Shown here in pieces: positions 1,946 to 50,882 of a stretch of DNA of 64,000 nt. Position 1 is the first letter of the stretch, and the number at the start of each line of letters is the position of its first letter. Origin of the DNA: a virus (Duplodnaviria > Caudoviricetes); the IMG/VR virus record IMGVR_UViG_3300048998_000202; one strand, given 5' to 3'. Below the pieces are notes generated by a model. That model did no database searches. It was not told the DNA's origin and saw nothing but the letters and a program-made list of their open reading frames with translations. Position numbers and translations under genes: made by a program.

Positions 1946-3771
1946 CAGTAGGCCCCCCAGGAATTCTGGGCACGCTGCTGGTACAGCGAAGCACCGAACT
2001 GCGGTATCTGGGAGTCGGTGAAGACCACGTCCTTGGGACGCCCGGTGGTGTCGACGTATGAGGTCAACACCGTGCCGGTGGTGGAGATCTGCTGGATCCC
2101 GACCTGGAAGCTGTTGGCGGCGCCGAAGGTGAATCCAGACCAGTCTGAGCCGTTGAGGAACCGAACGTTGTCCACGCCGGGCACGTTGTGCAGCACCTGA
2201 AGAGCGTCGGAGACCTGAACGATGGCGTTGATGCCCAGAGAGTTCAGCCAGCTCGCCAAGGCCGCATCCAGAGACTGGTTGACCTGGGGCGGATAGGCGA
2301 CCCGGTCATACATCACGGCCAAAGAGAACCTCAGCAGAACGGACTGGGCCTGGTGGGCCTGGGCATCGGTCCCGGCCAACCGCCAGGAGTCGATCTCCTT
2401 CTGAATCGACAGTGGCACCTCGTTGTAGGTGTAGGCACCATCAGATCCCACAGTGAAAACCGCGTTGTTGGCCGGGAGGTTGGCGGCGTTCCATTCCAGG
2501 CCGAAATTGCTCGACGGCGTCCAGCCGCTGGCGGTGTTGTCGTGGACGATCTGATAGGCGTACGTGATGCTGCCGACCACGGTGCCCAGAGGATTGGTCG
2601 GGGTGGCCAGTCCGTACGTGGTAGAGCCCACGACGATCGTCGGGGAGACGGTCAAGATCGGCCCGAAGGCCAGCGGGAGAAAGACGTTGCCGCTGACCGG
2701 ATGGCTGCCGTCCGGGCGCACGTAGTTGGCCAACGGGTAGGCCGAACTGCCGAAGATCTTGGCGTTCTGGAAGATCATCGACTGCTGGGCAGAAACCGCC
2801 CTGGACCCGGCACACCACACGTCGATGCGGTTGATGATGCCGGTGGAAGGATTGGACCGGCTCGCAATCGGCGTGTACTCGTACTCCAGGTCGGCGATGG
2901 TCCCGTTGGGGATAGCCGCGCTGTTGGTGACGGTGACGGTGGGCGGCAGCGTGGGCGTGAAGGTGTAGTCGTGCCCGGCGACGAAGACCACGCCGTTGTC
3001 GATGTCGGTGCCGAACGAGACGGGTGTACCGAACACGTACTTGGCGTCGTTCACCGTGCTGGTCGCCGTGCCGGAGGCCACCTGGATCTGCTCGCGTACG
3101 AGCTTGGTCGCGGTGACGACGTTGGCCGCGAAGCAGTCCGGGTCATTCAGGGCGATGCCCAGGAACATATCCTCGGTCCCCGCCATCGAGCGGAACACGG
3201 TCGCCTTCCAGCGGGCCCGCAGAGCAGAGTCCGTCTCCTGGTCCATGCCGCCCGAAGTGGCCGAGACGTTGATCGCAGCCGCCACCCCCTGGATGGGGGT
3301 GGAGAGGTTGTTGATCAAGTTCGGCCCGAGGTTGCCCGCAGGGCCCGCGTCCACCGCCTGGACGGGAACCGCCACCGACTGGATGCCGACATCCATGATG
3401 GCGCCGGTCACCGTCTGGAAGATCACCGGAGTGTCAGTGGAGGAGGTGATCTGGAAGTTGATGGGGATGAAGACGATCGAGTCGGTGTTGTCGACGCCCC
3501 GACTGAAGGTGACCGTTCCCGAAGCCCGTTTGGCCGGAAGCCGGGCGATACCGAAGAGCTGGCAGAACGAATCCAGGTCCGCATCGGTCTTGGAGTCGAT
3601 GTCGTAGGTGTAGGTCAGGAGCTGGTTGTCCACATAGGCGTCGGCAATGGATGCCGCCAGGGCGTCCATGATTTTGGCCATGGGGGTGCCGACCGAGGTA
3701 TCCAGCTCGGGCATCGAGGCCGCGAGGGCAGCCTTCATCTGAGAGGCGATATCCGCCTGGGTGGTCGCCAC
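1945..3771 (-). CDS. Baseplate J-like protein
   Basis: KRASGTVTFSR, VQAVDAGPAGN and SGGMDQETDSALRAR motifs. Confidence 0.9.
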   Translation of the reverse strand: MATTQADIASQMKAALAASMPELDTSVGTPMAKIMDALAASIADAYVDNQLLTYTYDIDSKTDADLDSFCQLFGIARLPAKRASGTVTFSRGVDNTDSIVFIPINFQITSSTDTPVIFQTVTGAIMDVGIQSVAVPVQAVDAGPAGNLGPNLINNLSTPIQGVAAAINVSATSGGMDQETDSALRARWKATVFRSMAGTEDMFLGIALNDPDCFAANVVTATKLVREQIQVASGTATSTVNDAKYVFGTPVSFGTDIDNGVVFVAGHDYTFTPTLPPTVTVTNSAAIPNGTIADLEYEYTPIASRSNPSTGIINRIDVWCAGSRAVSAQQSMIFQNAKIFGSSAYPLANYVRPDGSHPVSGNVFLPLAFGPILTVSPTIVVGSTTYGLATPTNPLGTVVGSITYAYQIVHDNTASGWTPSSNFGLEWNAANLPANNAVFTVGSDGAYTYNEVPLSIQKEIDSWRLAGTDAQAHQAQSVLLRFSLAVMYDRVAYPPQVNQSLDAALASWLNSLGINAIVQVSDALQVLHNVPGVDNVRFLNGSDWSGFTFGAANSFQVGIQQISTTGTVLTSYVDTTGRPKDVVFTDSQIPQFGASLYQQRAQNSWGAY

Positions 3772-25374: not shown

Positions 25375-25874
25375 CGAAGGGCCCGGGATCCGAAGATCCC
25401 GGGCCCTTCTCCATGCCTCGCCGTGTCGAGCCTTGCCATGCCGGGCCATGCCCGACCAAGCCGTGCCACGCAAGACTTGACTCTGTCAGTTCCACCACGA
25501 TCTGTCAAACGACGAAGGGGACCACCCGGAGGTGATCCCCTTCTCCCTGCCGTGCCTTACCCGGCCCTGCCTAGCCATGCCACACCGCACCACGCCCCGC
25601 AGGTCTTGACGTTATCAAGACCCTTCGGAGCCGTCAATGACGAAGGGGCCCTCCGTAGAGGACCCCTTCTCCTATGCCAAACCTAGCCATACCCTACCCT
25701 GCCACGCCAAACCTAGCCAAGCCATGCCCTGCAAGACTTGACTCTGTCAGCTCCTACGGCATCTGTCAACGACGGAGGGGCCCCACCGTAGTGGAGCCCC
25801 TCTCCCATGCCCGGCCTTACCCAGCCCTGCCTTGCCTCACCTCGGCCAGCCGTACCGAGACCTTGACTGTATCA
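25375..25874 (-). ncRNA. Array A: four GGY-NN pentamer small-RNA cassettes (10, 11, 10, 11 units)
   Basis: Pentamer tracts at 25807-25856, 25674-25728, 25547-25596 and 25413-25467, each with a TGAYAnnGTCAAG leader, TTGAC -35 (three of four) and a GC-rich terminator hairpin. Confidence 0.85.
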
Positions 25875-31387: not shown

Positions 31388-32377
31388 TCACGCCTTGGTG
31401 ATCGTCGCGATGCCCCTGGGGTTCAAAATGGACATATTGACCATTTCGTCAAATACCCATCCCTTCCAGAAGGCTTCGACCATGTGGTTCTCTTCCACGT
31501 CCAAACTGTACAGAACGGGGAAAACGCCCAAGAAGTTGGGCTCCGGGGTGAGGAAGACCTTGCCCTGCGGGACGATGATCGACCGCTGGATCTGGAACTC
31601 GCCGAACGAGGTGATGGTCTCGCCCGCGACGACCCGGTCCTTGAAGGCCCAGCCCGTCTGGTTGATGTCCCACCGGTACAGGTCCCGGAAGTCGAACGGG
31701 TTGATCAGGATCCGCGCCGACTGGAGCTCGTGCATGTCCGTCATGGCGACGGCCGAGTACAGCGAGCCCGGCGTCAGGTAGCCCGACGCCTCGGTGATGT
31801 TGTGGTTCGGGGTGACCGTGTGGTCCGGGCGGGTGGCGTAGTCCGTCAGCGCCGCCTGGAGCAGTACGAGCAGCCGGGTGTCCTCCTGCTTGAGGATCGC
31901 CTGCTTGGTCTCGTCCTGGGCCTGCTCGACTGCGTTGATACGCAGGTAGAACAGGTCCTCCTTGCGGATCGCGGGGCGCGAGGCGATACGGAAGAACCGC
32001 ACCGGAACGCGCTTGCCCTCGAACGGAGTCACACGGACTTCGCCCTCGGTGCCGGACATGATGTACGCCTGGCCCAGGTCGTCCCACACGTCGTACTCGA
32101 CGGGGGTACCCGGGGTGACCGGGTCCTCCACGAGCACGTTGCGGGTGATGCCCTGGTAGCGGAGCTTGAGCTGGATGGGACCGACCATCCCGACGCCCAG
32201 ACGGCGGATGCCGCCGGTCTCGTCGGAGAGGATCAGCGCCATCTTCTTGACCTTCGCCTCATGCGTGAGAGGCGCGGCCTTCTCCCGGCGGGCGAGGATC
32301 GCGGAGGCGTAGTCGTCGGACTTCTTGGCCACACGGCCACGGAGCGACGAGGTTGCGGCGAGAGTCTGAGTCGGCAT
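31388..32377 (-). CDS. Major capsid protein
   Basis: 329 aa after the scaffold and decoration genes; PIQLKLRYQGITRNVL and FDEMVNMSILNPRGIA resemble actinobacterial myophage capsid proteins. Confidence 0.88.
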   Translation of the reverse strand: MPTQTLAATSSLRGRVAKKSDDYASAILARREKAAPLTHEAKVKKMALILSDETGGIRRLGVGMVGPIQLKLRYQGITRNVLVEDPVTPGTPVEYDVWDDLGQAYIMSGTEGEVRVTPFEGKRVPVRFFRIASRPAIRKEDLFYLRINAVEQAQDETKQAILKQEDTRLLVLLQAALTDYATRPDHTVTPNHNITEASGYLTPGSLYSAVAMTDMHELQSARILINPFDFRDLYRWDINQTGWAFKDRVVAGETITSFGEFQIQRSIIVPQGKVFLTPEPNFLGVFPVLYSLDVEENHMVEAFWKGWVFDEMVNMSILNPRGIATITKA

Positions 32378-40976: not shown

Positions 40977-41168
40977 TCAACAGGCGAGGTGGTAGACCCT
41001 CCAGGCCCCGGCGGCCTTCTCCAGGCGCCCCGTCCCGGCGTCCACGCGGTGGCCGCAGCCCTTGTCGCAAAGCTTGGCGAACTTGTTCGGCACGATCTTG
41101 GCCGTCACCGTACGCGGTGCATTGCCCTCGGCGAGAGCGGCCAGTTCGGGATCGAGAAAGAACGCCAT
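40977..41168 (-). CDS. Small Zn-binding hypothetical protein
   Basis: RBS GGAGG; own promoter at 41201-41230; CDKGC and HLAC. Confidence 0.6.
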   Translation of the reverse strand: MAFFLDPELAALAEGNAPRTVTAKIVPNKFAKLCDKGCGHRVDAGTGRLEKAAGAWRVYHLAC

Positions 41169-41234
41169 GATGGCCTCCAGTGGAGTCGGGTACTGCTCCC
41201 AGCGTACTCCAAGGATTCTTGGAGTGACAAGGGG

Positions 41235-41633
41235 TTAGAGCATGGCGCGCAGGAGGGTGTTGAGGTCGGCCGGGGACAGGTCCTCCCCGTTGCCCAGGCG
41301 CTCGCGCAGCTCACTGACCTTGCGGTCGGTGTCGCTCATCCCGTAGTAGGGGTCGGGGGTGTGAGCAGTCACGACATCCTGTACGGCGTCCATGTCGGTG
41401 TCGCCGAGAATGTACAAGGCCCGGCCGCTGTCGTCACCGGTCAGTACGACCTGGTAGGCGTTGCGATCGCCGAGGTGGGCGTAGACCTCTTCGATGAGCT
41501 GGCGCTGGTGGACGTCTCCGGTGACCTCCAGGACCTGGGCGTGGCCGTCGAAGGGGATGTGGCCGTCCTGTGGCGGGACGAGCATGCCCTCGACGTCCTC
41601 TTCGACGGCGTCTTTGTCGATGTTCACGGCCAT
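41235..41633 (-). CDS. Hypothetical protein
   Basis: 132 aa, overlaps the polyprotein stop. Confidence 0.65.
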
Positions 41634-44600
41634 GTCGGGTCCTCGTCTTCGTCAAGGGCGGCGTAATGGGTGTCGGCGATGTCGAGCCGGTCCAGGTTGG
41701 CGGCCTGCACGCTCGCGCCCTCGTTGATGATCGCAGCCTGCTCGTGGGGGCTGTAGTTCTTCAGCGCCAGCTTGGAGAGCATCGCACGGGCCTGGAGTGC
41801 GATCTCGGCCCCGTCTCCGGTGCCCCGTACGGGGCTTGAGGAGCCGTCAGAGGACAGGTAGGAGGCGTGGCTCTGGAACTGGGCGATGAGGTCCTCCAGG
41901 GACCCCACAGCGGCCGTACGGGGCGGGGTGAGGGATTCGTCGTCGGTCAGGTCCAGGCCGTCGCCGTCGGTGAAGGGCAGGGCGCCTTCGGGTTCCATGT
42001 GAAGGGTGGCCTCGGCGCCAGGGGTGAGCTCCTGGTGCTCGGGCATACCGGGGTGTCCCGGGGGCATGGCGCCGCCCTCCCCTCCCTTGGGGCCGGAGGG
42101 GCGGGGCGGTCCGAATCCCTCCCCGAGCATGGAGATCGCCTCCGAGGTCATCGGGACGTCCCTCAGGGCCCGCCAGTACGCCGTCACGCCGTTCTCCAGG
42201 GGGGTGTCCTCGGTGCCGGGGCTGGAGGCCAGGGGGTCGTCGGACTGGGCGATCTGCTGGGGGATGGACGCGATCCGGTCGCCCAGTTCGTTGGGGGTGA
42301 TGGATCCCCAGTTGTCGGGGTCGGACTGGGAGGCCCAGCCGGTGGAGCCGGGGTTCTCGGCGAGGTTGCGGGGCTTGGTGGGACCCGGGGTGTAGTTCGG
42401 TGCGGCCGGAGTGGGCTCTCCCCAGGGGGAGTTGATCGCGGCCTCGTGGTGGGCGCCGTCAGGGAAGTCGTGCCGCACCCAGTCCCCGTTGCCGCGAGGG
42501 CGCCAGGAAACGCCCTTGAGGTGGACGGGAGCACCGGCTTTCAGAGGGACCTCGGCGTCGTCGTGGTCACCCATGGAGATGACGTCTTGTGCGACCAGTT
42601 CTTCGGGGTCGGTCTCGATGTGCTTCTTGGCCGGGGTGTGGGCGTGCAGCACCACATGGGTGTTGTTGTCACGACTGTCGCTGACGCCTGAGTAGTGGGC
42701 GGCCTGGTCCTTGTCCGGCGTCCAGTGCGTCCCGAGTCCCTGGTCCGAGAGATGCGTCGAGAGGGCCTGGGCTCGCTCCGCGACCGGCCGGGAATCGTCG
42801 TGCACCACGCTGTGCACGTCCGACGGCAAGTGGACCGCCATGCCCCGGTGCAGGGTGTCCCCCAGGCGTGGGTGGATGGAGTCCCAGTCGGTGTAGACGG
42901 ACTCGTGGGCCCGCTTGGTCTCGCCGTCGGAGTGCTCACCGTCGTAGCAGTGCTTGTTGTGGCACTGGTAGACGGGATCGCCCCATTCGTCACGGTGGAA
43001 GCGAGACCCCTCCTCGTCCTCCTCATACTCCGGTTCGTGGTGGTCGGGTTCGTCTTGCTCTTGGGCTGCCGTCAGGCCGTGCATGCCCAGCAGGAACGCG
43101 AACTCCTCGGGGTCGTGACCCTGGGCGCGGGACCACTGGGCGAGCGCCACCAGCGGAGTGACCTCGATCTCCCGGGCAGAAGACCGCACCAGCTTGTTGT
43201 CGCCGGAATCGATGTCGTAGCGAAGGACGACCTTCTTCGGCACCCACTCCGGCTTGGCCGAGTCCTCGGTGACGTCCCTGCCGAACATCCCCCGGGACTG
43301 GGCCTCGTACTGGAGGGCCAGAGCGTGGGAGCACATGCGCCCGGCGAACCGCGAGAAGTCGTCGTTGGCGCCCCAGTGGTAAGCGCCCCACTTGCAGCCG
43401 CAGGTGTACGTGGCCACCGAGTGCCGGGAGCCGGGGAAGCGCTGTACCCCGGTCTCGTAGACATGGTGGTCCCCCTGGACCTCGCCGAAGACCACGCCGT
43501 CCGAGGCGAGGGTGATGCGGACCTTGCCCTCGGAGCGGATGCGCTTGGCCTTGCGCTGGACATCGGCCCACGCCGAGGTGAAGTGGAACCGGAACTCGGG
43601 GTCGATTCCGGCTTCGGCGATCAGCGCGTACGGATTGAACGCGGCCTTCTTGCGGCCGTTAGTCGGGCGCCCGTCCTCGTCCCACTCGGTGCCGTCGTCA
43701 TAGGTACCGCCGGAGCCCGTCATGGCGTCGGCGTCAGTAGACCCCTGAGAGATGATCTCCTCCTCCGGGGCCTCGTCGGCTATGTCGGCGAACGAGCCGT
43801 CCTGCTGGTTGGCCTGCTTACGCTGCACCTTCGGGGGCTCGTAGTCCTCGTCCCCCGGGTCCCGGGCCAGGCGGTGCGGTTTGGCCCCGGGGAAGAACAG
43901 GTGCTTGTGGTCGATCCAGTCCCCGACGCGCTTGACGTTGTTCAACAGCGGCTCGCCATCGTGGCCCACCCCCACCATGTGACCCTGGACGAGGTGGCCC
44001 GTCTCCGAGGGCCGGTCATTGCCGTTGAACCTGTTTCTCTCGGCACGAGCAGCCCGACCCTGCATCTCCTCGTGGGTGTCATTGCCGTACTCGTCGTTGA
44101 AGGCGTCCATATTGCAGTTGTCGTCGCAGTACTCGTCGTGCTCGTGCCCACGGGAGTAGTTCGAATCCGGGTCCACGGGGTGTCCATGGTGGTCCAGGTC
44201 GTAGACGCTGACGCCGTCTTCCTTGGCCCCGGTGACATTGTTGGTGGACCGCTCGTCCGCGCGCCAGTCCCCGAAGCGAAGGTAGGTCGGCGAGGGTTCC
44301 GCCGCTCCCAGACGACGCTCGGCGGTGCCGTAGTCGTGCAGGTTCACCGCCCCGATGTGCAGAGCACCGTCGTCGGTGACCTTGTGCACGATGCGGTGAC
44401 CCCGGGACGCCTTGGTGGCGTACCAGCCCTTCAGCGGATGCCGCAGATCATGCGTCTGAAGGTTCGGGGCCCCAGCGGCCAGGGCGTCGATGGTGGCGCC
44501 GATCTGCTTCTGGGAGGGCTTGTCGAGCTTGCCCAGCTCCTTGGCGGCAGCCGGGTGGAAGGTTACAGGCCGAGATTCAGCCGGAGCTGCTCCCACTTCA

Positions 44601-47251
44601 CCGGGGGCTCCTGGCTGTTCTCCCGCTCCTGCATCGTCTTGACCAGATCCGGGTCGGGTTCGAGGCTTCCCACGACCCGCAGTCCGTCCTCCGTCATGTA
44701 CGCCATGGGGCTCGCCTCCGCTCTGCTCATCAAGTCCACCCTCCAGGGTACTCCAGGAATTGTTGGGGTGCAACGTCTCCACGAAGGCACCCTCGGCCGA
44801 CATCTGCCCGTAGTGCGACCCGTCCACCAGGTGGTGGTGGGTGTACTGGCTCGGGTACGACGGCGGGTACTGGGTGTCCGGGTCGGCCGCGCCCTCGGCC
44901 CACGAGATGCCGTGGTGCAGGCCGCCGTTGCCCTCGTGGCCGTGCAGGATCACGTGCGTGGGCGGGTGCGGGTGCGCCCCCTGCTCGTGCAGGGCGTCCG
45001 CATCCACGTCCGCGTCGATCTCCGCGTCGGAGGGGTCCTCGTGGTCGTCGTTGAACAGGTGCGCGTTGCCGACCTTGGAGTACAGGTGCCGCGCCCGATC
45101 CACCATCGGCTTGGACTTGTCGTGGACGAAGGCGTGGTCCTCGGGGCTCAGGTGCACCGCCGCGCCCGTGTGGGTCTCCGGGGCGGGCTTGGGCTCCAGC
45201 AGGTGCACGCCCTGCGCCTGGTGCTCCTCCTGGAGGGCCTGGGCGTCGGAGTGCGAGACGTGCTCGCCCGAGGGCAGGTGGAAGTCCGCCTTCTTGATCG
45301 GCGGCCCGTGGTAGCCCTGCTCGTTCGGGTCGTTGTGGTCGGTCCACACGTGCTCGCCCGGCACGTGTGCGGTCAGCACCGGCCAGTCGTTCTCCGGGTC
45401 GTTGTCGTTCGCGGCGTGCTCGTGGGCGTAGTCGGGGCTGGTGGAGACCCAGTCGCCCTTGTTGATGTCGTGTATCCCGTGCGGGACGGCCCGGTAGATC
45501 TGGATGTGCCCGTGGTCCCCGAAGTGGCTGTGGCCCTCGTCCGGACCGGGCGCCTGGTGCATCATCGAGTACTCACCGGCCGTGACGTGGTGCGCCCAGG
45601 GGGCATCCGTCTCCCGGCCCTCGTGTCCCCACACCGGCTTGGACACCGCCGTCACCCCTGTGATGTGCACCGGAGCGCCCGTACGGACCGTGCGCTCCTG
45701 CTCGTGGCCACCGTCGAAGATCTCGTGCTGATCAGCGTAGTCCTGCCACTCCGGAGTGCCGTGCTGCACGACGTGCTCGGGATCCACCCGGCCGTGCAGG
45801 ATCACCCCGTGGGTGTGCGGGGTGGCGTCGTCCTCGTCCTCCTCGTGGGCCAGGGCGAAGTTGTGCGAGGTGTACGGGTCGGTGGACCAGTGGATGCCCG
45901 CCTCGTGCCCCCGGAAGCCCTTCTGGTTCAGGTAGCCGACCGGATCGGCGTGCAGGCGCTCCACGTCCTCGTCGCTGGCCAGCCCCAGGTTCAGCCCCCG
46001 GTGGACCTCCTCGCCGCCGACGGAGCCGTGGACCGTACGTCCCTTCTGCACAGTCTTGCCCCGGGTGTAGCTGTCCCACCACGCCTTGCCGTCGTTCGTA
46101 CGCTCGCCGTGGTCGATCGCGTGGGGGTGACGACGCTGCATCTCATCCATGAGTGCGGACGCGACCCCCTTGCCCCGGTGCGCCTCGGCAGTGTCGAGAC
46201 CCTCCACCCGGACCTTCTGGTTCTTCTTGAACGGCACCAGGTAGGTCAGCGTGCCCATGTGCTCGCCGGTCTCCGGGTGCAGCGCGTGGAGCTTGACCCT
46301 GTCGTCGAAGGTGCTGCCGCCATAGTCGGCGGTATCGGCAGTGAAGGTCGGCTGCACCTTCTCGGCCGCCGCGTATTTGGCTACACTCGCAGTACCCCGA
46401 AGAAAGGCGCTGTCGTGGCCCGCTCCCCCATGCCCATCCTCGAACGCTTCCTGAGCCACGTCGATGCGTCGCCTGATCCCGAAACCTGCGACATGTGGAA
46501 CGCCCGGACGAACCGCCTCGGGTACGGCCAGTTCTGGGACGGCACCTACACCGCCTCCGAACGCCCCCGGATGGTCGATGCCCACCGATGGATCTACCTC
46601 CACACCCATGGACCCACGCGCCTGCATGTACGCCACACGTGCGACATACGCGCCTGCGTCAAGCTCGGGCATCTCATATCCGGCACCCAAGCCGACAACA
46701 TGCGAGACCGCGACTCCCGAGGCCGGGGCGTCGTACCCGACATGCGGGGTTTCGCCCGAGGCCACGGCACCAAACTCACCGCTGAGCAGGTGCTGGAGAT
46801 TCGCACTCGCGCCACCGGCCAGTGGGGAGAACAGCGCCGCCTCGCCCGGGAGTTCGGAGTGGGTCATCAGACCATCAGCGCGATCCTCTCCGGAAGGCGC
46901 TGGGCGGAGTGATCCCATGTGGACGGGCAGCGCGATGTCGGGCCTGTCGCGCAGTACGTCCGTGAGTTCTTCGTAGTCCTCAGAGGCCAGATGCCCCCCT
47001 GCCGCCTGCCGGGTGCCAGTGGAGTACGGAGAGAGCTGTGAAGGCCCGTACAGGCCCCGTCCAGCCCCACCGTCCAGGATGACGTCATACTCCTCCCCCA
47101 AGGCCGGGGAGTAAGTGACCTCCTCCACCCGCCCGGGGATCCCGTCAACCGTCATCACCCGCTGACCTTGGGAGTACTCGGTGGGGTAGTCCCCCGCCGC
47201 CATGCGCGACAGCGCGGTGTCGTGTGCGCTTTCGCGGCGTCCCAGCCCCAT
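41624..47251 (-). CDS. Polyvalent head-associated polyprotein (GNAT, 3-4 ART-like, RelE-like, SWIM domains)
   Basis: [11 protein letters not shown]; VHRG..HWST..EQE; IYRA..WVSTS..NEQ; LHRG..HWT..DAEV; RelE-like segment; YTCGC..MCSH. Confidence 0.75.
44563..44730 (-). CDS. Overprinted antitoxin-like small protein (alternate frame inside the polyprotein)
   Basis: [12 protein letters not shown]...[14 protein letters not shown]; alternative start 44706 with GGAGG; promoter motif at 44745-44774; ends at the start of the RelE-like domain. Confidence 0.55.
46415..46912 (+). mobile_element. HNH homing endonuclease nested antisense in the polyprotein gene
   Basis: [33 protein letters not shown] plus C-terminal HTH; GTG start after AGAAAGG. 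Confidence 0.85.
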
Positions 47252-47312
47252 GCGTCCTCCTACCGATCCTCACACCTTCCCGGCACTGGACGTGACTAGG
47301 ACAGCAGCGCCC

Positions 47313-48707
47313 TCAACCCACACGACCGCCGACGTTGGCGTGACGGACCACGGTATTACTGGCGCTGGCCGCGCTCCACTGCCACGTGATCACCAGATCG
47401 TTCGAAATCGTGGTGTTGAACGTTGACGTCGCCGTGGGAAAGATGATCTGGTTCGCCCCGATCGAGCCGACAACGGTCAGCGTCTGGTTCTGCCAGAAGG
47501 CATTCGTGCACGTGCCCGATCCCCCGGTCGTCAAGCATACGAAATCGGCCTCCGCGATCACGCCCTTGTTCGCCACGTTGGACGAAGTGACGGTCGGGCC
47601 CATCGTCGACAGAAGTGTCCCGGCGATTCCCCCCAGATACAGCCGCAGCGTGTAGGAGGGAGTACCCGTGACAGAACCCCGCAGCAACGTCCTCATGTGG
47701 TAGACGGCGCCTGCCGTCGCGTCGTTCGCAGGAATCGTCAACGTGGCCACCACCGTCTCCGTGATGGAGTTGCTGATGGTCTGCATCGACGCAGGAGACG
47801 GCACAGTGAACTGCCGGATCTGAGTGGCGAGGACCTTACTGTCCGTATCCAACGTGGCCACCCCGGAAGCGACCGCGAGCTGACTGGTGGGGACGGCATT
47901 GATATTCGCAGGAGTGACCGAAACAACGCCCTGCGACCCGTTGACCGACGTGACCCCAGCATGAACGTGATCACCCCGCGCCGCGCTGTTCGTCGCACCG
48001 GCCGCATTGGCCGACCCGATGGCCACGATGGTGCCGGTAGAGCTGTAGAGCTGCTGGGCGCCGTTGAGCTTGCTGGCGCCGTCCAGCCCCGGCACACCAC
48101 CCGAAGCGTTCTTCGAGGCGCTCGCAATATACAGAGTGGTCAGATCCGGAATCTGCGACAGAGGGATCTTGGTACTGCCGTCCAGAGAGGCGACGCCACT
48201 GGCCGCCGCCTTCTGGGTCACCGCCACGTACATACTGCTCAGGTCCGGAATCTGGGCAGTAGGCACCTTCGTGGAACCGTCCAGAGAGGCGACGCCGCTC
48301 GCTGCCGCCTTCTGGGTCGTCGCGATGTACGTCGCCGATAGATCCGGGATGCGGGCCGTGCCGAAGGTCCCCGAGGAGACCTGGGACGCCGGGAGGGGCG
48401 GCACCTGGGCCACGGGGACCAGCGTGCCGGAGTCCAGGGATGCCACCCCATTGGCCGCCGCCCGGGACGTCTTGGCGACATAAGTGGCATCGGTGAAGAT
48501 CTGGTCCACCGCGCCGACGGTGCTCGCGTCCAGTTCGACGTTCCCGATCAGTCCGTTGACGGAGGTGACGCCCTCTACGATCGTCGAAGGCAGCTCCGAG
48601 GACGGGATCTTCCCGTCCGATCCGAGACTGGCCACACCGCTCGCCGCACCGATCTGGGCGGAAGTAACGAAATCCGATGTGTCGTCCACCGTCAGGTGCT
48701 TAGGCAT
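47313..48707 (-). CDS. Fibre-like virion protein with GVASLD repeats
   Basis: About six AASGVASLDGSTK(V/I)P..QIPDL repeats. Confidence 0.7.
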   Translation of the reverse strand: MPKHLTVDDTSDFVTSAQIGAASGVASLGSDGKIPSSELPSTIVEGVTSVNGLIGNVELDASTVGAVDQIFTDATYVAKTSRAAANGVASLDSGTLVPVAQVPPLPASQVSSGTFGTARIPDLSATYIATTQKAAASGVASLDGSTKVPTAQIPDLSSMYVAVTQKAAASGVASLDGSTKIPLSQIPDLTTLYIASASKNASGGVPGLDGASKLNGAQQLYSSTGTIVAIGSANAAGATNSAARGDHVHAGVTSVNGSQGVVSVTPANINAVPTSQLAVASGVATLDTDSKVLATQIRQFTVPSPASMQTISNSITETVVATLTIPANDATAGAVYHMRTLLRGSVTGTPSYTLRLYLGGIAGTLLSTMGPTVTSSNVANKGVIAEADFVCLTTGGSGTCTNAFWQNQTLTVVGSIGANQIIFPTATSTFNTTISNDLVITWQWSAASASNTVVRHANVGGRVG

Positions 48708-48767: not shown

Positions 48768-50882
48768 TCAGACCTCCTGAAGTCCGGAGGCGTAGAACGT
48801 CTCGGGGTCGACCTCGATGTGGCGGCGTACGCCGACCACCTTGGGGTCGGCGAACTTGCCGATGGGGTCCCACTCGCTCAGCGGCACGTCCTCGGGACGC
48901 TCGCGCGGCTGGTGATGCTGGCGGGCGGCCGTACGGGTGCGTTCGGACTGCCGGAAGAGTGCGGCGGGCTTGGGCATCCCCGCGCGCATCTCGTCGGACT
49001 CGGGCGGGCGCTGGCTGCCCTCTGCGGGGGCCTCACCGCCGGTCTCGGTGCCGTCCACGGGGGTGGCGGGCATGCCGGGCATGGGGACGCCTCCGGCGGG
49101 CTGGTCGCCCATGAGGTCCATCTGGGTGGGGGCGAGGTTGGGGGTGGGGACGACGTCATCGGTGCCGAGCATGGGGGCGCGCATGCCCTCCATGGCGGGG
49201 TTGGCGGGAGCCATGGCCTGCTGGGCTTGGGGCTGGAAGTCCGTCTTGAGGTCGAGGGGGATGGGCAGGCCCTTGTCCTTGAGGCCCTGGTAGATCTTTT
49301 TGCGGGTCTCCTGCTCGGCGATGGCGAGCTGGACCTGTTCGTCCTGGGTGCGTTCCACCTCGTCGTCGAAGTCGATGCCGGAGGCGGTGAGGCGGGTCTT
49401 CATCGAGACGGGGACGCCTGCGGCACGCAGGGCCTCGAAGAACTCGCGTTCGGCGGACTCGTCGGTGAGGGACATGGTCTGCATGACCAGCTCGGGGACG
49501 AGGAGCTTGGGCTGCTCTACGATGCGCTCGTTGCCGGTCTCCTCGTCGATTTCGAGGATCTCTTCCATCTTGACGTAGCGCTTGCCGTTGCGTTCGTCGT
49601 AGTCGTAGTGCTCCTGGGCTTCGGCGACGACCAGGGCGCGCTGGTGGAAGTGGCGCTTGATCATGTCCTGGTAGGTGGTGAGGAGCTGGGAGACCAGGTC
49701 GCGGTTGAGGGCGTCGGCGGCGTAGGTCTCGCCGGAGGAGGCGCCGTTGAGCATGGTCTGGGACAGGCCGAAGGACTGGAGTATGCGATCTTCCAGGCGT
49801 TCGAAGTCGGCCGTCATGTCGGGCATGTTCTCCCGGCCGAAGACGGGTTCCATGGTGACGGCGAAGTTGTGGACGAGGGCGCGGAAGTCGGCGGCGAGGG
49901 CGGCGTCCAGGGACTCCATGAACTCTTCGAGGTCGTCCGGGGTGGGGATCCAGGGGACCTGGGTGCCGAGGTCGGTGGCGGAGGCGCCGAGTTTGACCAG
50001 GACCAGAGGGGTGTAGAGGCGGTCGGCGATGGCGTCCTGGGCGGCGTTGAGCATCTCTTCCTGCATGACGGCTCGCATGGCGCGCATGAGGATGGGGATG
50101 CCGCGTTTGGAGAAGGTGTCGGCCTTGAACTTCATCTGGCGGAGCAGGATGTTGCTGACGGGCATCATGTCGTCGGCCCCGGCGTAGCGGCTGAGCTCGG
50201 GGTAGACCTGCATGAGCTTCTCGTACTCCCAGGCGGGGGAGCGCTTTTGCATGACCTCGCGGATCGTCTCCGGGAGGCGTATGAGGAAGCGGGGGTCCTT
50301 GAGGAAGGCGCTGCGCTGGACCATGACGTCGTCGGGGTTGAGGAGTTCTTCGTCGTCCCAGATGCCCAGGGACTCGTTGAAGGTGGCGAAGGGCCATGCT
50401 TCGCCGACGGTCCAGTATTCGCGGCCGACGTCGAGGAGGAATTCGTCGTAGTTGAGGCCGTCTTCGGTGAAGAAGAGGTCTTCGTAGAACTGGGTGACCT
50501 GTTCGTCCTTGCAGCGCAGTTCCATGCCGAGCAGGGGGTACTTGGTGTAGATGTCGATGCATGAGGCGATGACGGGGTGGGTCTGGTAGAGCAGGCGGCA
50601 GTAGGTGCGGAGTTGCCGGAGCTGGGATTCGTCGTCGACCTCGTAGGGGAGGTTGTTCTGCTTCCAGTAGAACAGCGGGTCGCGGGGGCGGCCGGTGGCG
50701 AAGGCGGTGCTGGGGGTGGCTGCGGATCCTTGCTTGCGCATGGAGACGCGGCGGTTGGCCTTCATCTGCTGGGCTTCTGGGGTGCCGTCGGTTTGTGCTG
50801 TTGCCCCTCGGGTCATGGCCTTGCCGAGGCGCGCGAAGGCGGCCTGCTGGTAGGCGTCGGGCTCGGAGGGGGTGTCAGGCAC
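48768..50882 (-). CDS. Portal protein
   Basis: 704 aa; HPVIASCIDIY, REYWTVGEA, RGIPILMRA; upstream of head genes. Confidence 0.85.
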   Translation of the reverse strand: MPDTPSEPDAYQQAAFARLGKAMTRGATAQTDGTPEAQQMKANRRVSMRKQGSAATPSTAFATGRPRDPLFYWKQNNLPYEVDDESQLRQLRTYCRLLYQTHPVIASCIDIYTKYPLLGMELRCKDEQVTQFYEDLFFTEDGLNYDEFLLDVGREYWTVGEAWPFATFNESLGIWDDEELLNPDDVMVQRSAFLKDPRFLIRLPETIREVMQKRSPAWEYEKLMQVYPELSRYAGADDMMPVSNILLRQMKFKADTFSKRGIPILMRAMRAVMQEEMLNAAQDAIADRLYTPLVLVKLGASATDLGTQVPWIPTPDDLEEFMESLDAALAADFRALVHNFAVTMEPVFGRENMPDMTADFERLEDRILQSFGLSQTMLNGASSGETYAADALNRDLVSQLLTTYQDMIKRHFHQRALVVAEAQEHYDYDERNGKRYVKMEEILEIDEETGNERIVEQPKLLVPELVMQTMSLTDESAEREFFEALRAAGVPVSMKTRLTASGIDFDDEVERTQDEQVQLAIAEQETRKKIYQGLKDKGLPIPLDLKTDFQPQAQQAMAPANPAMEGMRAPMLGTDDVVPTPNLAPTQMDLMGDQPAGGVPMPGMPATPVDGTETGGEAPAEGSQRPPESDEMRAGMPKPAALFRQSERTRTAARQHHQPRERPEDVPLSEWDPIGKFADPKVVGVRRHIEVDPETFYASGLQEV

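Follow-up and report, generated by a model that had tools for sequence, protein, structure and literature searches.

In a 64,000-nucleotide (nt) stretch of phage DNA (IMG/VR virus record IMGVR_UViG_3300048998_000202; Duplodnaviria, Caudoviricetes), analyzed at its full length and here termed the window, a giant minus-strand open reading frame (ORF) encodes a protein, P0001, that carries among its modules an in-frame domain with the predicted fold of the RelE/YoeB toxins. Immediately upstream of this domain, a small ORF is overprinted on the giant gene in the +1 frame. The small ORF is very likely a real, translated gene, and its acidic product is probably the cognate antitoxin of the embedded domain. 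Taken as a whole, the arrangement seems, on balance, to be a self-contained module that derives from a toxin-antitoxin (TA) system and has been built into a giant polyvalent cargo protein of the head module.

The embedded domain and the overprinted small ORF

An AlphaFold2 model of the domain, built on 19 homologues (mean predicted local distance difference test [pLDDT] score, 86.9), consists of helices at residues 5 to 13 and 16 to 31, strands at residues 38 to 40, 49 to 52, 57 to 63, and 69 to 76, and a terminal helix at residues 80 to 87; this alpha-alpha-beta4-alpha order is that of the RelE fold. The top 50 Foldseek matches to the model are all RelE/ParE-superfamily toxins. Staphylococcus aureus and Escherichia coli YoeB are the best of them (template modeling [TM] score, 0.68 to 0.75; root mean square deviation, 2.2 to 2.4 Å over ~82 columns), with a TM score of 0.73 to 0.75 for the YoeB structure 7bwf_A, and are followed by YafQ, RelE, Mycobacterium tuberculosis RelK and RelE1, and HigB; TM scores range from 0.67 to 0.75 across YoeB, YafQ, RelE, RelK, and HigB. 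By sequence, the domain matches phrog_1213 (“RelE-like toxin”) at an E value of 4e-6 and E. coli YoeB in the PDB at an E value of 0.012. The predicted structure places the domain in the RelE/ParE toxin fold and settles what are otherwise weak profile matches; a preliminary description of this DNA, made by a model from the letters alone, had called this in-frame polyprotein segment RelE-like, and the fold bears it out.

The catalytic residues of YoeB, which we take to be Glu46, Arg65, His83, and Tyr84, can be compared with those of the domain in a HMMER alignment, which pairs R58 of the domain with R65 of YoeB and sets H39 at the position of E46. H77 and Y79 lie near H83 and Y84 of YoeB, one residue out of register, the C-terminal LHDY of the domain standing beside the YHY of YoeB. 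Across the family, H39, W48, T51, H61, H77, and R85 are invariant and H57, R58, and Y79 are nearly so, and this invariance of putative catalytic residues across embedded copies suggests that they may have been retained as enzymes. The domain is basic (isoelectric point [pI], 9.46). Its start codon is not conserved, and in no locus is it followed by a stop codon; because it never has a stop codon of its own, it is a true in-frame domain and not an independent gene lying in a chance open frame. A possible internal start, a GTG upstream of the domain (Table 1), is preceded by AGGAG, and the corresponding codon is the called start of the database relatives P0022, P0029, and P0032, although this GTG is not kept in all loci.

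The small ORF (Table 1) can be read from either of two start codons, ATG 44706 or an alternative at ATG 44730 that would give 55 aa. Its position is mirrored in the GC content at third codon positions (GC3). In the window, whose overall GC content is 63 to 71%, a GC3 plot of the three minus-strand frames gives values of 0.8 to 1.0 for the giant frame nearly throughout, with two exceptions. One of these (~46950 to 46450) is the codon-aligned antisense of a plus-strand HNH endonuclease gene. At the other (~44790 to 44600), the giant frame falls to 0.38 to 0.50 and the +1 frame rises to 0.76 to 0.86; this switch coincides exactly with the small ORF.

All 11 related small ORFs examined, as well as the window copy, have an ATG start preceded at 5 to 9 nt by a Shine-Dalgarno (SD)-like purine run, in keeping with the ribosome-binding site that had been attributed to the small gene and that takes the form of GGAGG in the window. 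The +1-frame ORFs of the window and its relatives span 42 to 57 codons; their N-terminal halves differ, and their last ~33 residues share the pattern P-E-L...L.ER......P-V.W-E.V...L-G-L. Over 10 non-redundant loci, the joint probability of a +1 ORF of at least 40 codons that starts with ATG and ends at the toxin start is ~5e-11, as computed given the polyprotein sequences and random synonymous codons. The junction with the domain is variable: the end of the small ORF and the start of the domain overlap as GTGA in loci L024 and L028, as GTAG in L029 to L031, and as GTAA in the window, and in the other loci the small ORF stops 11 to 14 nt upstream. A single G-to-A change would convert GTGA to GTAA, keeping the small-ORF stop and losing the GTG start of the toxin; this would be the direction of change, as we infer it from these junctions.

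Database homologues of 47 aa are 77 to 100% identical to the small protein, and gene callers elsewhere report it in 17 database clusters (42 to 79 aa), named, where they are named, “hypothetical protein”; one such homologue comes from a 152-kb Streptomyces albidoflavus contig. The ORF is absent from the one public annotation of a relative that was checked, and a metagenome scan with the small-ORF alignment returned no matches. The peptide of 47 to 55 aa that the preliminary description had placed in another frame just upstream of the toxin-like segment is thus confirmed in its two ATGs, in the GC3 switch, and in its retention by 16 of 18 domain-bearing loci (see below).

Selection can be traced in both frames of the overlap. 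Throughout the small ORF, the giant frame is free of stops in all 10 loci tested (joint P of ~1e-3, given the small-ORF proteins). In the N-terminal part of the small ORF, the DNA encoding the polyprotein-frame motif AGRGKPR has an identity of 0.68 in the polyprotein frame versus 0.25 in the small-ORF frame (9 loci), and pairwise differences at giant-frame codon positions 1, 2, and 3 amount to 0.19, 0.29, and 0.66, with variants such as GCG/GCA/GCC, GGT/GGG/GGC/GGA, and CGT/CGG/CGA/CGC. Because changes fall mainly at third codon positions, AGRGKPR is under clear purifying selection in the polyprotein frame. For the last 16 codons of the small ORF, the mean BLOSUM62 score is 2.61 in their own frame versus 1.84 in the giant frame, and codon-position variation in this C-terminal block is not decisive taken alone. 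The frame-wise conservation of the motif and of the last 16 codons therefore points to a split constraint, the 5′ half of the overlap being held for the most part by the giant protein and the 3′ half for the most part by the small one, and the polyprotein frame is, to judge from these patterns, translated through the overlap. In the giant frame, the SD and ATG show up as ..GG..H-G.. or, in several relatives, as YFGGGH. The motif itself, in the form (R/H)x-A-G-R-G-K/R-P-R-(R/H), always precedes the RelE-fold domain by ~30 residues (window, L024 to L033, L038, and L039) and looks like an AT-hook or a basic nucleic acid-binding patch, or perhaps a processing site.

A promoter-like site precedes the small ORF inside the coding frame of the giant gene (the site at 44773) (Table 1). 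Its 17-nt spacer contains an imperfect palindrome, and its -10 element ends 38 nt before ATG 44706, a spacing that favors the 47-aa start. The site is unique at up to 3 mismatches, and two intergenic sites match it at 23/30 and 21/30 positions. Both of these (at 41230 and 25353) contain the spacer palindrome CTCCAAnAATCCTTGGAG, which the site at 44773 shares in imperfect form, are followed 32 to 37 nt later by a start codon, and look like members of a phage promoter class with a built-in operator. Among the relatives, sites of the form TTGnnn-N16/17-TAnnnT with spacer palindromes occur 26 to 38 nt upstream of the small-ORF ATG in L024, L029, L030, L031, and L033, that of L033 (TTGACT-N16-TACTCT) having a perfect 18-bp palindrome; at six other related loci, no equivalent promoter site was seen upstream of the small ORF. 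A generic promoter scan of positions 41000 to 48000 reported no sites, that at 44773 included. The claim that an operator-containing promoter is copied at 44745 to 44774 holds with respect to the likeness to the two intergenic sites and the recurrence in relatives, but not with respect to the E. coli consensus. We regard the site as a putative promoter, a role that is well supported by analogy and conservation.

Relatives, movement of the module, and genomic setting

At the nucleotide level, a blastn search of the stretch against 50,697 phage records found no matches, and a tblastn search with the whole of P0001 matched only a conserved core (query aa 1200 to 1325, containing a CxC...CxH motif) in cluster C mycobacteriophages and in Gordonia and Rhodococcus phages. 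The domain alone has many more relatives: HMMER searches of 1.84e9 cluster representatives recovered 90 at E < 1e-3, 63 of them below 1e-10, most of which have the domain embedded at varied positions in proteins of 500 to 3300 aa. P0008 (2140 aa), P0009, and P0010 are close to P0001, with domains 86 to 93% identical to its own and the same upstream read-through sequence. P0011 and P0013 start exactly at VTFHP, with which the domain opens (VTFHP...RRLG, aa 896 to 985 of P0001), and stand-alone homologues of the domain have 87 to 108 aa (P0040, 87 aa; P0002, 98 aa; P0062; and P0069).

Homologues of the giant gene at 22 IMG/VR loci (L001 to L022, mostly on ~155-kb contigs) share the N-terminal ~110 aa and the C-terminal core; their middle modules differ, and residues ~849 to 980 are absent from 22/22. 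Searches with toxin-domain alignments added 17 domain-bearing loci (L024 to L040), and in three cases the domain resides in a different giant gene of the same phage (L024 with L019, L025 with L017, and L027 with L007). The giant proteins that host the module in relatives also contain GNAT, Arr-like ADP-ribosyltransferase, ParB_N, NUDIX, and 2H-phosphoesterase domains. The window and L024 to L033, L036/L037, L038, L039, and L040 each have a +1-frame ORF just ahead of the domain. A small-ORF profile was run on the 40 loci and the complete window, together 347 kb translated in six frames. It matched 16 of the 18 domain-bearing loci, four of which had not contributed to it, and always directly upstream of the domain; it had no match in any of the 22 toxin-less homologous loci and none elsewhere in the window. 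We conclude from these comparisons that the module has moved between different giant genes, as a portable cassette set between short linkers.

Homology to the upstream module ends at the left linker of P0001, and its relatives close the upstream module with ...VDGSH(L/Y)KTAAAEGP. In the toxin-less L005, the downstream module follows directly after KTAAAEP, and in the toxin-less L019 the downstream module starts at the same point. Throughout P0001, the module borders at aa 292, 554, 816, 979, 1201, 1392, and 1602 (window positions 46378, 45592, 44806, 44317, 43651, 43078, and 42448, minus strand) coincide with x-[T/S/K]-A-[A/G]-[E/Q/I/F] linkers, namely, KYAAAE, VTAGE, MSAEG, LGAAE, KKAAF, LTAAQE, and HEAAIN; relatives use KTAAAE or (D/E)(Y/F)F..TA. 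Such border linkers may be recombination joints or, alternatively, A-x-E-type cleavage sites for the head protease. KTAAAE was also considered as a universal linker and rejected: the exact string is rare, and it is the looser x[TSK]A[AG][EQ] that seems to fit the P0001 borders.

Several further features of the domain-bearing relatives are of note. At L034 (positions 1 to 200) and in P0047, the domain comes directly after a ..RTAAAD.. or ..TKTAAD.. linker, and neither the overprinted ORF nor AGRGKPR is present. At L040 (positions 2501 to 3100, plus strand; pRLB1-9.1), there are two tandem RelE-like domains, the first of which is degenerate at the conserved TKASRGHR stretch, and a single small +1-frame ORF upstream of the first domain. 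In L025, L026, L027, L038, and L040, a 2H phosphoesterase (LigT-like) domain lies at the C terminus of the giant protein that holds the RelE-fold module, and the public annotation of a 2H-bearing giant protein reads “2'-5' RNA ligase family protein”; a 2H enzyme acting on 2′,3′-cyclic phosphate ends would be a logical partner of a RelE-type RNase. The host genus is named at two loci, one on a 151-kb “plasmid” from Streptomyces sp. cg35 and the other on pRLB1-9.1, a circular “plasmid” of 154,158 bp from Streptomyces sp. RLB1-9. Relatives of 151 to 154 kb deposited as circular Streptomyces plasmids comprise L001/L040 (NZ_CP041653.1), L038 (NZ_CP191269.1), and P0106, and a phage-plasmid or carrier state may be how these related phages persist.

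The giant ORF is preceded on the same strand by a portal gene and a collagen-like gene; small genes and a second collagen-like (tail-fiber) gene lie between it and a gene encoding a protein with a head-maturation-protease domain. From the portal, protease, and major head genes around the giant ORF, it follows that the window is phage DNA and that the giant gene is within a head module. P0001 matches GNAT and ParB-C-like (PHROG) profiles, and its conserved core region has a SWIM-like CxC...CxH motif, as read by eye; neither Pfam nor PHROGs gave a match to a MuF domain.

The HNH endonuclease gene noted above lies intact and antisense inside the giant ORF (46430 to 46912, plus strand). It matches Pfam HNH_3 with 27.2 bits, above the cut-off, as well as several PHROG HNH families, and has a C-terminal helix-turn-helix; its codons stand one-to-one with those of the giant frame, which stays open. 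Because relatives join the N-terminal ~116 aa straight to later modules, the HNH gene is an insertion. Elsewhere, at ~25400 to 25700 (minus strand), runs of GGC-A/T-N-type pentamer repeats (ggcatggctaggcagggccgg...), with terminator-like hairpins between them, lie upstream of the 25353 promoter-like site.

Table 1. Features of the giant gene, the overprinted module, and their surroundings (window positions)
Feature	Position	Strand	Remarks
Giant stop-free ORF P0001, 1875 aa	41624..47251	-	Polyvalent cargo protein (proposed), head gene module
Left linker QMSAEGA, aa 816-822	44786..44806	-	Homology to upstream module ends here
Promoter-like site, TTGCAC-N17-TACCCT	44745..44773	-	-35 at 44773-44768; -10 at 44750-44745; inside coding frame
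Shine-Dalgarno GGAGG	44715..44719	-	8 nt upstream of ATG 44706
Small ORF, 47 aa + TAA	44563..44706	-	Candidate minimal antitoxin; ATG 44706; +1 frame
Polyprotein-frame motif AGRGKPR, aa 858-864	44660..44680	-	Overlaps N-terminal part of small ORF
In-frame GTG	44594..44596	-	10 codons before domain; possible internal start of a toxin-plus-C-terminal isoform
Junction GTAA	44563..44566	-	Small-ORF stop TAA overlaps GTA (Val896), first domain codon
RelE/YoeB-fold domain (predicted), aa 896-985	44297..44566	-	In frame with modules on both sides; no stop codon of its own
Right linker RRLGAAE, aa 979-985	44297..44317	-	Joins YLRFGDW...DERSTNN module
Portal gene	48771-50882	-	Same strand as giant ORF, which it precedes; phrog_2833, E 1e-159
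Head-maturation-protease-domain protein, 1251 aa	34096-37848		Past giant ORF
Major head protein	31391-32377		Past giant ORF
Intergenic promoter-like site, TTGTCA-N18-TACGCT	41230->41200	-	Between stop of 132-aa gene and next gene
Intergenic promoter-like site, TTGACA-N18-TATGTT	25353->25334	-	Just past terminator-like hairpin

Proposed function and alternative explanations

That the small protein is probably the antitoxin of the embedded domain is argued from its position and overlap, its size, the pairing of charges (pI of 4.44 versus 9.46 for the domain), and its strict co-occurrence with the RelE-fold domain. An AlphaFold2 model gives the small protein a disordered N terminus followed by helices at residues 19 to 31 and 38 to 45 (pLDDT, ~82 there); a disordered N terminus with two short helices resembles the toxin-wrapping tails of known antitoxins, which we treat as a lead only. 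The same holds for its neighbors in the ESM Atlas, which are weak (0.79 to 0.84) and include a cluster of ribbon-helix-helix antitoxins (0.82) and DUF6290 (0.79).

In the arrangement that we favor, ribosomes on the giant gene would read through the small ORF in frame 0, producing a Gly/Ala/Pro/Arg-rich linker that contains the selected AGRGKPR, and the RelE/YoeB-fold domain would thereby be covalently built into the cargo protein. An internal sigma-70-type promoter, together with the SD and the ATG, would independently produce the 47-aa acidic helix-loop-helix peptide from the +1 frame. This peptide would be an antitoxin reduced to its toxin-binding piece, with no DNA-binding domain, and would silence the RelE-type mRNA endonuclease in the phage-producing cell, possibly also quenching the toxin after injection; the domain would act on host translation once the cargo protein is delivered. 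Ribosome-dependent RNase activity, neutralization by the peptide, and packaging and injection of the giant protein are inferred, the last two from the position of the gene and from published proposals about polyvalent proteins.

Several observations weigh against this interpretation. Profile matches of the domain fall short of their cut-offs: ParE_toxin (Pfam) scores 18.5 bits versus a cut-off of 23 (E value, 3e-3), TIGR00053 (YafQ) 16.2 versus 87, and TIGR02116 (YoeB) 13 versus 51.8. The Glu46 of YoeB is replaced by His. The small-ORF family belongs to no known antitoxin family in profile searches of Pfam, NCBIfam, and the PDB, and no DNA-binding domain was detected in the small protein. In L034, L035, and P0047, the domain occurs without the small ORF upstream. 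The promoter-like site at 44773 agrees with the E. coli consensus at only 6/12 positions, and a Pfam scan of P0001 detected no MPTase or other processing peptidase domain. The statement in the preliminary description that the C terminus of the peptide is typical of RelB-like antitoxins found no backing in searches either: searched with the small-ORF profile, the PDB returned zinc-finger linker noise and Pfam nothing meaningful, and no antitoxin was matched in either.

A bolder extension of the favored arrangement, to which we give a real but small chance, is an injected-toxin timer. A capsid-borne mRNase would halt host translation at once, and host RNA polymerase would then read the hidden promoter inside the toxin's gene on the incoming DNA, making the antidote that ends the shut-off so that phage messages are translated; the promoter, antidote, and toxin would move as a unit between giant cargo genes by recombination at short shared linkers.

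Other explanations accept the small ORF as a gene and assign it another role. It may not be an antitoxin at all, as the lack of homology to known antitoxins would allow, serving instead as a chaperone or regulator of the cargo or as a coupling device, by which ribosomes re-initiate to make a shorter isoform that begins near the RelE domain. Coupling would account for the GTGA overlap in L024 and L028, the in-frame GTG at 44596, and the database proteins that start at VTFHP or ~11 codons upstream (P0011, P0013, P0022, and P0029), but most loci no longer have a start codon at the boundary (the codon is GTA or GTC, or the small ORF stops 11 to 14 nt upstream), so coupling cannot be the general function. 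As to a non-antitoxin role more broadly, strict co-occurrence with the RelE fold, acidic/basic pairing, and placement ahead of the toxin characterize type II antitoxins, and we consider these explanations unlikely. It is also rather unlikely that the module is an addiction or exclusion cassette of a plasmid-like carrier state, in which the internal promoter makes antitoxin and a toxin-bearing C-terminal isoform while the late gene is silent, and in which loss of the element or infection by a rival phage frees the toxin. This would suit the ~150-kb relatives deposited as circular Streptomyces “plasmids” (pRLB1-9.1 and that of Streptomyces sp. cg35), the 152-kb S. albidoflavus contig, the operator-like palindrome of the promoter, and the AGGAG before GTG 44596. 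However, the toxin runs on into hundreds of downstream residues in every case, no conserved start codon marks its beginning, and the upstream polyprotein frame is under purifying selection, from which it follows that the domain is made as part of the giant protein.

The remaining explanations do away with an independent small gene. Under a programmed +1 frameshift, an upstream cargo half would end in the ...WE..LGL tail, with separate production of the toxin half; conservation does move from the polyprotein frame in the 5′ half of the overlap to the +1 frame in the 3′ half, as a frameshift site would give. Yet a frameshift needs neither the ATG with an SD found at the head of the +1 ORF in every locus nor the promoter found in several, no shared slippery or +1-prone site was noticed (no systematic search was made), and the polyprotein frame is open right through to the toxin in all loci, which together make a frameshift highly improbable. 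As for a chance open frame without function in GC-rich DNA, long spurious ORFs are common in the window (for example, a 1405-aa frame on the plus strand), but the GC3 switch, the joint probability given above, and the retention of the ATG, the SD, and the C-terminal motif across loci with only 50 to 70% toxin identity effectively refute it.

If the arrangement that we favor is right, it bears on a question to which there has been no general answer, namely, how cells that produce harmful polyvalent proteins survive: a dual-coded antidote with a promoter of its own is a concrete and testable solution. The overlap would also offer a clear natural example of dual coding that has been sustained, with selection that can be measured in each frame, and it illustrates how the partner of an embedded toxin escapes surveys that rely on gene annotation. 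Being small and portable, the cassette could also serve as a genetic tool.

Comparison with known systems

Among classical TA systems, yefM-yoeB and relBE are the closest counterparts. The order of antitoxin then toxin is the same, as is the position of the small gene immediately upstream of, or overlapping, the toxin coding sequence; L024 and L028 retain a 4-nt start/stop overlap; and the upstream product is small and acidic, the downstream one basic and of predicted RelE fold. In contrast with these systems, the toxin here lacks a stop codon of its own and, in most cases, a start codon as well, being a domain of a 640- to 3300-aa protein, and the candidate antitoxin, of 42 to 57 aa, lacks a DNA-binding domain, shows no recognizable similarity to YefM, RelB, or DinJ, and is encoded wholly within another frame that is itself translated. 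The module is not a classical type II TA system, because its toxin has no gene boundaries of its own and its antitoxin has neither a known family nor a DNA-binding domain.

The MuF polymorphic toxins of temperate phages, which have downstream immunity genes (Jamet et al. 2017, BMC Biol, PMC5576092), likewise fuse a toxin domain to a head-associated phage protein and have a small cognate protective protein encoded adjacent to it. Here, however, no MuF domain was detected, the toxin is internal and not C-terminal, and the candidate protective gene is overprinted ahead of the toxin instead of standing separately downstream of it. Multidomain defense proteins of the RelE/ParE superfamily in bacteria (Gerdes 2025, mBio, PMC11980606) also have toxin domains of the BECR fold embedded in larger architectures, but that survey concerns bacterial defense proteins, and it sets aside cases without an identifiable antitoxin gene or domain; such a screen would have missed an overprinted ORF of the kind described here. 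Nothing relevant on antitoxins overprinted in phages came out of a literature search.

In organization, P0001 resembles the polyvalent proteins, which are predicted to be packaged and injected and to act early in infection (Iyer, Burroughs, Anand, de Souza, and Aravind 2017, J Bacteriol, PMC5512222). These are giant multi-module proteins encoded among virion genes, with GNAT, ParB-like, ADP-ribosyltransferase, 2H, and NUDIX domains plus BECR-fold RNases, and in P0001 and its relatives, too, a single polypeptide, with its gene among virion or late genes, unites many conflict-type domains that are unrelated to one another. They differ in that the RNase here is a YoeB/RelE-type toxin domain and not one of the PBECR families of that article, and in that no MPTase processing domain was detected in P0001. 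Term searches of the article gave no antidote gene for such domains and none overprinted in a polyvalent gene. The module fits the polyvalent-protein concept and adds to it what is probably a dual-coded antidote.

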